Source of the DNA: a virus
Taxonomy: Duplodnaviria; Heunggongvirae; Uroviricota; Caudoviricetes
Strand: one strand, 5' to 3'
Virus record (IMG/VR): IMGVR_UViG_2859799533_000002
Length of the DNA stretch: 12,984 nt
The number at the start of each line of letters is the position of its first letter. Positions within the stretch are counted from its first letter, which is position 1. Positions 4,328 to 5,104 of the stretch are shown here, piece after piece. The notes under the pieces are model-generated. The model was not told the DNA's origin. It did not search any database and worked only from the letters and a program-made list of their open reading frames with translations. The translations under genes were made by a program, and so were the position numbers.

Positions 4328-4356
4328 TTGAAGAATTAATTACGAGTCGTTATTAT
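4328..4356 (+). promoter_or_regulatory. Putative sigma70 promoter for the tRNA cluster
   Basis: TTGAAG (4328-4333), 17-bp spacer, TATTAT (4351-4356); predicted start about 3 to 8 bp before the first tRNA at 4366. Confidence 0.4.
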
Positions 4357-4365
4357 GCGGCTCCC

Positions 4366-4441
4366 GGCCCTTTAGCTCAGTGGTGAGAGCGAGCGACTCA
4401 TAATCGCCAGGTCGCTGGTTCAAATCCAGCAAGGGCCACCA
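4366..4441 (+). tRNA. ileZ: tRNA with CAU anticodon, ileX/ileZ-like (tRNA-Ile2 after lysidine modification; tRNA-Met cannot be excluded from sequence alone)
   Basis: 76 nt folded by hand: acceptor GGCCCTT/AAGGGCC, D-stem GCTC/GAGC, anticodon loop CTCATAA, T-loop TTCAAAT, encoded CCA; closely resembles E. coli ileX as I recall it. Confidence 0.85.
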
Positions 4442-4448
4442 TCACATA

Positions 4449-4525
4449 CCGCCATTAGCTCATCAGGAAAGAGCGCCAGCCTTCGAAGCTGGCTGCGCGG
4501 GGTTCAAGTCCCCGATGGCGGTCCA
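4449..4525 (+). tRNA. tRNA-Arg (anticodon UCG)
   Basis: 77 nt: perfect 7-bp acceptor stem CCGCCAT/ATGGCGG, anticodon stem CCAGC/GCTGG with loop CTTCGAA, T-arm CGGGG-TTCAAGT-CCCCG, encoded CCA. Confidence 0.85.
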
Positions 4526-4538
4526 TTATCTGCATCAT

Positions 4539-4615
4539 GCGTTGTTAGCTCAGCCGGACAGAGCAATTGCCTTCTAAGCAATCGGTCACTGGTTCGAATC
4601 CAGTACAACGCGCCA
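4539..4615 (+). tRNA. tRNA-Arg (anticodon UCU, reads AGA)
   Basis: 77 nt: acceptor GCGTTGT/ACAACGC, anticodon stem ATTGC/GCAAT with loop CTTCTAA, T-arm ACTGG-TTCGAAT-CCAGT, encoded CCA. Confidence 0.85.
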
Positions 4616-4630
4616 CACTTATTTTCCCTG

Positions 4631-4655
4631 GCTCGCTTTTGCGGGCTTTTTTTTT
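4631..4655 (+). terminator. Putative intrinsic terminator after the tRNA cluster
   Basis: GCTCGC-TTTT-GCGGGC hairpin (6 bp, one G-U pair) followed by nine T residues. Confidence 0.5.
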
Positions 4656-4852
4656 AAATGTCTCACAATTCAGACGGTTGACTGTTGTCTGGTTTGCGGG
4701 GAGTTTGTTAAAAGAAACTGGCATGGTGAATCCCCCTGTGCGGAGGGGCAATCAGCGAGTAGGTATATGGGATAATCGCGGATTCAGGTGCTGGTACTGA
4801 ATTCACCGGGAGGCACCCGGCACCATGCAATGGCACATAGCGCCACTCTCCA

Positions 4853-4877
4853 GCCCCTCTCCGGAGGGGCTTTCTTG
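4853..4877 (+). terminator. Putative intrinsic terminator (plus strand)
   Basis: GCCCCT-CTCCGG-AGGGGC hairpin followed by TTTCTTG. Confidence 0.35.
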
Positions 4878-4882
4878 TGGGC

Positions 4883-4911
4883 AAAAAAAGCCCGCGCTGG
4901 GAGACGCGGGC
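4883..4911 (-). terminator. Putative intrinsic terminator (minus strand)
   Basis: GCCCGCG-CTGGGAGA-CGCGGGC hairpin preceded on the plus strand by A7, so followed by U7 on the minus strand. Confidence 0.35.
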
Positions 4912-5104
4912 GGCAAGGAATAAACAACAAAACGTGAAGTAATATTTCAGCTGGCGAATAATACCCCATAGTAATCACTCTGCGCAACTGCGCGGTCTTT
5001 TTCGAATTGCGGGCTGTCGTCTCTCTTCTGCCATTGTCCTGTAACTTCCGGACTTCAGCCCGCTCCTCATTTTACTCACAATATTATCCCGGCCGGGAGG
5101 ATTC

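Follow-up and report, generated by a model that had tools for sequence, protein, structure and literature searches.

The region between positions 4328 and 5104 of the window, that is, of the whole stretch of 12,984 nucleotides held in IMG/VR as virus record IMGVR_UViG_2859799533_000002, very probably belongs to the surviving core, of about 3.2 kb, of the late-region moron module of a toxin-free lambdoid prophage similar to Sp4 of Escherichia coli O157:H7 Sakai, cut by insertion sequences (IS) on both sides and now lying in a Shigella chromosome. All 12,984 bases of the window are 100% identical to record CP026866.1 by nucleotide comparison, and five further genomes, including CP049281, the chromosome of Shigella boydii 600657, match the window at 99.9% when two extra IS1 insertions are set aside. 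The locus is ordinary and of a kind already described, namely a common stx-free lambdoid prophage, with its cargo site empty, of which IS elements have left a degraded remnant in Shigella. It is not to be read as a "toxin-deleted" Shiga toxin (Stx) phage and gives no signal of a latent toxin locus; it is instead a clear example of a known architecture, consisting of a tRNA unit, a 12-nt cargo site (holding stx2, TerB or nothing) and a convergent pair of small RNA (sRNA) genes. These RNA genes in the spacer ahead of nanS-p have been overlooked by gene callers and by readers of the raw sequence, and apart from a correct annotation of the locus the finding is of little consequence. The features of the island are the following.

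3287 to about 6480: phage island, about 3.2 kb of late region
3287-4325, plus strand: N6/N4 DNA methylase gene with its 5' end lost (Pfam N6_N4_Mtase, E 4e-43)
4328-4356, plus strand: putative sigma-70-like promoter of the tRNA cluster (TTGAAG, 17 nt, TATTAT), from a promoter scan
4366-4441, plus strand: tRNA with anticodon CAU, ileZ type, putative tRNA-Ile2 (ARAGORN; Rfam 72.5 bits)
4449-4525, plus strand: tRNA-Arg with anticodon UCG, argN type (ARAGORN; Rfam 58 bits)
4539-4615, plus strand: tRNA-Arg with anticodon UCU, argO type, reading AGA/AGG (ARAGORN; Rfam 70.1 bits)
4630-4656, plus strand: intrinsic terminator of the tRNA cluster, with a 7-bp GC-rich stem (4630-4647), a tetraloop and nine T, from a terminator scan
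4647-4658: unoccupied cargo (moron) site, TTTTTTTTTAAA (12 nt), bounded by the terminator stem and the conserved right border
4659-4691, plus strand: right border of the cargo site, with the stretch leading up to STnc100 (TGTCTCACAATTCAG..TTGACT), kept in empty, stx2 and TerB loci
4692-4882, plus strand: sRNA gene STnc100 (Rfam RF02076), short allele, with a terminator hairpin at 4852-4871
4883-5048, minus strand: convergent RNA, counterpart of the Hfq-bound EcOnc08/EcOnc21 of Sakai Sp4, its 3' end formed by the terminator 4911-4890 and seven U
4980-5003, plus strand: small terminator-like hairpin 5' of nanS-p, the hairpin itself at 4980-4995 (-9.3 kcal/mol, z -2.5)
5105-6493, plus strand: truncated nanS-p-type sialate O-acetylesterase gene (DUF1737, PF08410, E 1.2e-15, and SASA, PF03629, E 2.6e-11)

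The locus closest to that of the window is Sp4, which is itself stx-free. Positions 4539-5116 of the window align with Sp4 without a gap and with 14 mismatches in 578 bp. Both loci have the ileZ1-argN1-argO1 trio followed by a spacer of exactly 489 bp, which in the window runs from the last tRNA gene to the nanS-p ATG and in Sp4 leads to ECs_1088; the spacer is 97.6% identical and gapless, the short STnc100 allele is 99.1% identical, the block of the minus-strand RNA is shared, and a DUF1737/SASA esterase starts at the equal position. The differences are that the Sp4 prophage is complete in length, includes Q and lysis genes, has an AraC-type gene upstream of the tRNAs where the window has a methylase, and carries a nanS body of another allele group (72%), while the window is IS-cut on both sides. 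The intact stx-free prophages of AVS0969 and O103 RM8385 are also collinear with the window and have the 489-bp spacing. Furthermore, in the stx-free phages vB_EcoP_phi296/315/367, TL-2011a, PPwrbA_EH2201/EC3734, Nil3 and Lahn2 (the records of the last two being partial) the tRNA trio is directly followed by STnc100 and NanS; Nil3 is 97.5% identical to the window over 4539-5058, and phi296 differs in having 28 extra nt at the cargo site and a long STnc100 allele.

The cargo site can be compared among loci through the distance between the terminator stem (GCTCGCTTTTGCGGGC) and the right border (TGTCTCACAATTCAG), with the following lengths and contents.

12 nt, no content: the window, Nil3, AVS0969, O103 RM8385 and Sakai Sp4
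40 nt, 28 extra nt: phi296
764 nt, TerB and DUF3927: strain CP55
1342 nt, stx2AB: three stx2 loci, with stx2a in Sp5 and Stx2_95 and stx2c in OkiPb01694

Many other genomes have a smaller DUF3927 insert, of about 620 bp. In every case the cargo sits inside the T-run that ends the tRNA terminator and precedes the promoter region of STnc100, which is the classic moron pattern; according to Tree et al. 2014 (PMC4104026), moron insertions are tolerated downstream of the Q-dependent late promoter. The stx2 and TerB/DUF3927 cassettes open with a similar motif directly after the T-run, ATATCTGCGCC and GTATCCGCGCC (positions 3659-3680, 4341-4362 and 1839-1860 of the compared loci L002, L009 and L015, respectively), which may represent a shared cassette end or a recombination scar. 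In the window itself, stx was searched for by tblastn with Stx2A and Stx2B and by blastn at word size 7 with the complete stx2 cassette, and nothing was detected except the shared 34 nt after the tRNA, which correspond to the terminator. None of the six spacer open reading frames (ORFs) of 43-77 amino acids gave a Pfam match; PGAP labels only a partial "hypothetical protein" pseudogene in the spacer of E. coli records.

The Stx2 phages (VT2-Sakai/Sp5, 933W type and Stx2_95) are built on the same plan, with methylase or Q, the tRNA trio with its promoter and terminator, the cargo site, STnc100, a convergent antisense sRNA and nanS-p, and their left flank and nanS body are 93-95% and 95-96% identical to those of the window, respectively. 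They differ from it in that a stx2AB cassette of 1342 nt stands at the 12-nt site and in their long STnc100 allele, which is 70% identical with gaps, and Sp5 has AsxR in place of the EcOnc08-type RNA of the window. On the other hand, none of the Stx1 phages examined (AP005153, Ss-VASD and Sp15) has the tRNA trio.

The empty junction is widespread. In the phage collection, 367 records match, and in eight of them the match extends over at least 80% of window 4300-5150; all eight are without stx at the site. Among complete E. coli genomes, 1,737 of 5,426 have at least 80% of window 4539-4900 covered in one place, a raw figure which overstates the empty state owing to records with the DUF3927 insert: in 60 rows sampled at regular intervals along the ranking, 35 fell into the class with at least 80% coverage, and while 20 of these were single contiguous pieces, 15 carried the insert of about 620 bp. 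The figure was accordingly revised, and the empty junction is estimated to be present in about 1,000 of the 5,426 genomes, or roughly one in five. Their sources are human, chicken, cattle and wastewater isolates, with O157, O26, O103, O104 and O55 strains among them. A scan of species-representative genomes yielded nothing beyond E. albertii, other Escherichia and a small number of distant matches; no Shigella representative was among them.

These results bear on the initial annotation, which had described three tRNAs (CAU, UCG and UCU) followed by NanS-p with no toxin genes between them, in a gap of 489 bp with hairpins and no credible ORF, and which had taken the region for a Stx-phage-like locus without stx, either naturally stx-free or bereft of its toxin genes. 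The order of genes is borne out by ARAGORN, Rfam and Pfam, together with the negative searches for stx, and the length of the gap and its want of a credible ORF by the measured distance and by the Pfam search of its ORFs. The hairpins are real but are terminators and two known sRNA genes and not anonymous structure. Similarly, the resemblance to Stx phages is genuine, the late-region module being the same, but the spacer is a conserved stx-free configuration common to many prophages; its collinearity with Sp4, AVS0969, O103 RM8385 and about 1,000 E. coli genomes is the very result that the annotation itself had named as speaking against its interpretation. As for the two origins that it left side by side, the naturally stx-free relative is favoured over the loss of toxin genes, since the junction is in register with empty loci and no stx remnant is present.

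With regard to the tRNA unit, ARAGORN calls no tRNA genes in the window other than the three within 4328-5104, and the Rfam tRNA model RF00005 accepts the trio with E values of 1e-10 to 1e-14, all above the gathering threshold of 29 bits, so that the check by tRNA predictors that had been proposed for the three genes came out in their favour. The CAU tRNA is labelled Met by ARAGORN, although identical genes carry the label tRNA-Ile (ileZ) in PGAP, Sakai and VT2-Sakai records, and it would read AUA if lysidine-modified. It is 100% identical in six of seven aligned loci and the UCU tRNA is unchanged across all of them, while the middle tRNA (Arg-UCG) is the variable member, with several substitutions among relatives and Rfam scores of 43-58 bits; in phage Stx2_95 its anticodon is TCT in place of TCG. 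The site at 4328-4356 is the sole promoter-like site found in 2800-5300, and its -10 element TATTAT is kept in seven of seven aligned loci, including one (L012) with a different upstream gene. The terminator folds at -11.4 kcal/mol (z -3.9), and none of 200 shuffled sequences was as stable; the VT2-Sakai record labels the equivalent sites "putative tRNA promoter" and "possible rho-independent terminator". With a predicted promoter on one side and a predicted terminator on the other, the trio appears to be a self-contained unit. Codon use of stx2A is rich in codons of these tRNAs (ATA 46.9 and AGA 18.8 per thousand), and the methylase and nanS genes of the window are not enriched in them (ATA 6.6-8.8 and AGA 0-2.2 per thousand).

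The right-hand part of the spacer is occupied by RNA genes. STnc100 scores 139.4 bits against a gathering score of 47 (E 2e-31) and matches the full model, positions 1-206. The northern probe of EcOnc05 (an RNA of about 222 nt) is exactly complementary to positions 4750-4784 of the window, which means that EcOnc05 of Sakai Sp4 is this STnc100 allele. Published STnc_100 primers for quantitative PCR also match exactly, at 4722-4741 and 4795-4814; they come from the detection of STnc_100 in vesicles of Shiga-toxin-producing E. coli, and the same paper places it 75 nt downstream of stx2B. The element TTGACT at 4677-4682 is presumed to be part of the STnc100 promoter. The STnc100 region is 99.1% identical and gapless to that of empty loci, as against 70-79% with 13-32 gap positions to stx1, stx2 and TerB loci. 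STnc100 alleles fall into a short form of 189-194 nt (124-139 bits), found in the window, Nil3, AVS0969, O103, Sp4, L020, L026 and both copies of E. albertii, and a long form of 206-216 nt (158-208 bits), found in all stx and TerB loci, in phi296 and in the empty locus L022, the sample being too small to call an association with cargo state. The E. albertii copies, in strain NBRC 107761 (L021), are in tandem at 1722-1915 and 2191-2379, upstream of a nanS homologue.

On the opposite strand, the terminator of the convergent RNA folds at -16.9 kcal/mol (z -3.5) and reaches to within 1 nt of the STnc100 match. Over seven loci, the block from 4883 to about 5050 is almost unchanged, although the adjoining STnc100 body varies, and 4883-5104 is 93-96% identical in nearly all loci. 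In Sp3, 4, 5, 9, 10, 11, 15 and 17, convergent sRNAs have been described that separate the moron coding sequence from the conserved ORF downstream, and the Hfq binding and northern sizes of these sRNAs are known for E. coli Sakai (Tree et al. 2014, PMC4104026). The window has the same arrangement, with a plus-strand STnc100-type RNA and a minus-strand counterpart of an Hfq-bound RNA between the cargo position and the downstream ORF. The northern probe shared by EcOnc08/21/42, for an RNA of about 271 nt, has the plus-strand sequence of 4957-4991, differing from the window by 5 substitutions and from Sp4 by none, and because it equals the plus strand, it detects the minus-strand RNA, whose transcript, judged by size, may start near 5150. 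The Hfq-crosslinking peaks of Sp4 fall on window positions 4753-4861 (plus), 4885-4957 (minus) and 4963-5048 (minus). The Sp4 mapping was anchored on probe sequences and not on coordinates alone; in Table S2 of Tree et al. 2014, the coordinates of AsxR and EcOnc27 are about 135 bp lower than those of NC_002695.2 at Sp5, and the Sp4 coordinates agree, so that EcOnc sRNAs placed by coordinate should be compared with their probes.

The minus-strand RNA lies where AsxR lies in Sp5 and AgvB in L022 (Escherichia sp.), convergent with STnc100 and between the cargo site and nanS-p. In Sp5 (L015), Rfam places STnc100 at 3214-3419 (plus) and AsxR at 3421-3473 (minus), and the EcOnc27 probe falls inside that STnc100. 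However, the window differs from these known pairs in that the Rfam models of AsxR (RF02703) and AgvB (RF02702), which recognise a conserved 3' region of about 42 nt, gave no match in 4300-5200 even at E values up to 1, while matching Sp5 with 88 bits and L022 with 56 bits. The window RNA therefore has the position of AsxR and AgvB but is a member of the separate EcOnc08/21/42 group. A sub-threshold match to the Rfam OmrA-B model (23.7 bits, gathering score 40) at 4883-4971 on the minus strand overlaps this RNA and is most likely a similarity of the terminator only. Esr41 was considered as its identity, since the Pas sRNA preprint places Esr41 near PasD, and was ruled out, being encoded by SpLE1 and without an Rfam match here. 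A GcvB-like sRNA of about 65 nt with the seed GUUUUGUUGUUU, driven by TTGCGC-18-TATTAT at 4989-4960, was set aside as the main transcript: the EcOnc08/21/42 probe covers this motif, and the RNA that it reveals in Sakai has about 271 nt, which puts the start of the main transcript further upstream, and a short form besides it is possible. The terminator and seed sequences were also searched for in the literature, with no match.

The RNA genes of the island are intact, and the two protein genes on either side of them are damaged. Missing from the methylase are the start codon and about 6-14 codons, and its frame runs in from the IS; the N-terminus of its relatives, MFNTVKISSCELIN, is missing from the window, and the nucleotide match to phage relatives (L002 and L011) starts at 3308. 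The frame extends upstream into the IS2-like end as far as a GTG at 3150, giving 391 amino acids (gene callers report 352-373 amino acids in different genomes), and the truncated methylase could be expressed as a fusion driven from the IS. NanS-p has 462 amino acids compared with 617-649 in relatives, the full length being about 620-650 including a C-terminal domain which is not reached. Its residues 1-455 are 77% identical to full-length NanS-p of phages phi296 and Stx2_95; the alignment ends at residue 455-459, equivalent to 478-481 of the relatives of 646-649 amino acids, and an IS600-like element cuts the gene at about codon 459. The gene is a mosaic, as its first 150 bp or so (5105-5258) are 98.7% identical to a DUF1737 fragment of E. 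coli RIVM_C019217, while the body (5251-6235) is 96.75% identical to the allele of Stx1 phage AP005153 and Sakai Sp15, 96.2% to that of the Stx2a phage Stx2_95, and just 72-73% to the Sp4-type alleles of empty prophages.

Taken as a module, the region comprises four units. The tRNA trio, with its own promoter and terminator, would supply decoders of the rare codons AUA, AGA/AGG and CGA; the cargo site in the terminator T-run, empty here, accommodates stx2AB or other cassettes in related phages; the convergent Hfq-associated sRNA genes, STnc100 on the plus strand and the EcOnc08/21-type RNA on the minus strand, follow as the third unit, and nanS-p as the fourth. In an intact phage, RNA polymerase modified by Q and coming from the late promoter transcribes past all of the terminators into nanS-p and the lysis genes. 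The initial annotation had given the order of Stx phages, with a late regulator ahead of the tRNAs; in the window, the upstream gene is the N6/N4 methylase and a domain search of the ORFs finds no Q in the window, where the IS2-like element adjoins the methylase at about 3286 with integrase and IS1 beyond. This element has taken the place of all the sequence that preceded the methylase, with Q and the late promoter. Nor is there a holin/endolysin/Rz lysis cassette 3' of nanS-p, where IS600-like and IS1 copies, an integrase fragment and AlpA and Bro-N genes are found. Since Q, the late promoter and the lysis genes are gone, expression is still plausible only for those RNA genes that bring signals of their own; promoter activity and expression in Shigella are inferred.

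Although the collinearity with Sp4 is close, several observations weigh against a prophage of this type as the simple source of the locus. The nanS body is nearest to alleles of Stx1 and Stx2 phages and not to the Sp4 type, which makes the locus a mosaic and no simple copy of Sp4; the whole stretch 3308-6235 is contiguous in none of the 5,426 complete E. coli genomes; and the estimate of how many genomes carry the empty junction rests on the sample of 60 rows. The first two of these can be turned into an argument for a clean loss of stx or other cargo, whereby homologous recombination with a co-resident stx-free prophage would have replaced the segment from the tRNAs to STnc100 and left a Stx-type nanS-p behind. 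A nanS body at 96-97% to Stx-phage alleles, as against 72-73% to the Sp4 type, is what such an event would leave; the block 4883-5104, conserved at 93-96%, could be the crossover site, and a crossover in 4883-5250 would give this mosaic, which in its exact form is absent from the 5,426 E. coli genomes. The Pas sRNA preprint, moreover, raises repeated loss of stx beside an esterase gene as one possibility. Yet a stx-free phage that gained its nanS allele through ordinary lambdoid mosaicism would look the same, the tRNA trio is missing from those Stx1 phages whose nanS allele is closest, the window holds no trace of stx, and the register of the junction is identical to that of hundreds of empty loci, so that we consider loss by recombination to be quite improbable. 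That the locus never had stx is the alternative favoured by the evidence, because it is in exact register with empty loci, has no stx remnant, has a STnc100 region like that of empty loci, and because the Stx1 phages examined are without the trio.

The density of IS in this part of the Shigella chromosome, with four IS1 copies, one IS2-like and two IS600-like elements within 13 kb and with both flanking protein genes truncated by IS, might also suggest that an IS-mediated deletion removed the toxin genes; but 4616-5104 contains neither IS sequence nor scar, and the junction is base-for-base that of intact prophages with no IS nearby, so that this proposal is effectively refuted by the gapless match to Sp4 and keeps hardly any credibility. 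Barely more credence is given to the view that chance matches or functionless, decayed pseudogenes account for the tRNA-like features and hairpins, for while the prophage is defective and neither adjoining protein gene is intact, the tRNA and STnc100 scores are far over the family thresholds, two of the three tRNAs are invariant across divergent prophages, and the promoter and terminator signals are intact. A more speculative proposal, to which we assign a low probability, is that the IS-bounded island is a domesticated "RNA-only" phage remnant, in which strains of the S. boydii type, after the loss of Q and of the lysis and structural genes and the truncation of both adjoining protein genes, would keep the three rare-codon tRNAs, STnc100 and the EcOnc08-type antisense RNA, with promoters and terminators of their own, for the benefit of the host, for instance in the translation of horizontally acquired genes rich in AUA and AGA or through action on the Hfq regulon; in a weaker variant of this idea, the mosaic would record a recombinational loss of stx in an ancestor of Shigella. 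The remnant of a toxin-free, Sp4-like prophage remains the preferred interpretation.

The island is embedded in the following features of the window.

1-1119, minus strand: lambda-type integrase
1336-1953: IS1 fragment
1954-3286, minus strand: IS2-like element, left boundary of the island, with ORFs of 301 and 121 amino acids carrying rve/HTH_21 and HTH_Tnp_1 domains (Pfam)
about 6480-8514, minus strand: IS600-like element, right boundary of the island, split by IS1 at 6610-7378 (self-comparison, five-genome comparison and Pfam)
8583-9352: IS1
9415-9807: integrase fragment
9780-10549: IS1
10712-10969: AlpA gene
11026-11604: Bro-N gene
12618 to the end of the window: second IS600-like copy

The element on the left is one which, from the sizes of its ORFs and its terminal sequence, we take to be IS2 with the end given here, and the left end of the IS600-like element, near 6480, was computed from the expected length of that element. 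The IS1 copies at 6610-7378 and 8583-9352 are present in the CP026866 strain and absent from the five genomes that are otherwise 99.9% identical; both show an overlap of 8-9 bp at the junction, which fits a target-site duplication, and they look like recent insertions, the first of them nested within the IS600-like element. The chromosomal genes flanking the remnant (loci L003-L008) look unrelated, with an ABC-transporter operon by the integrase and Pfam matches to CheA, CheW and MCP past the last IS600-like copy, which suggests an IS-mediated rearrangement.

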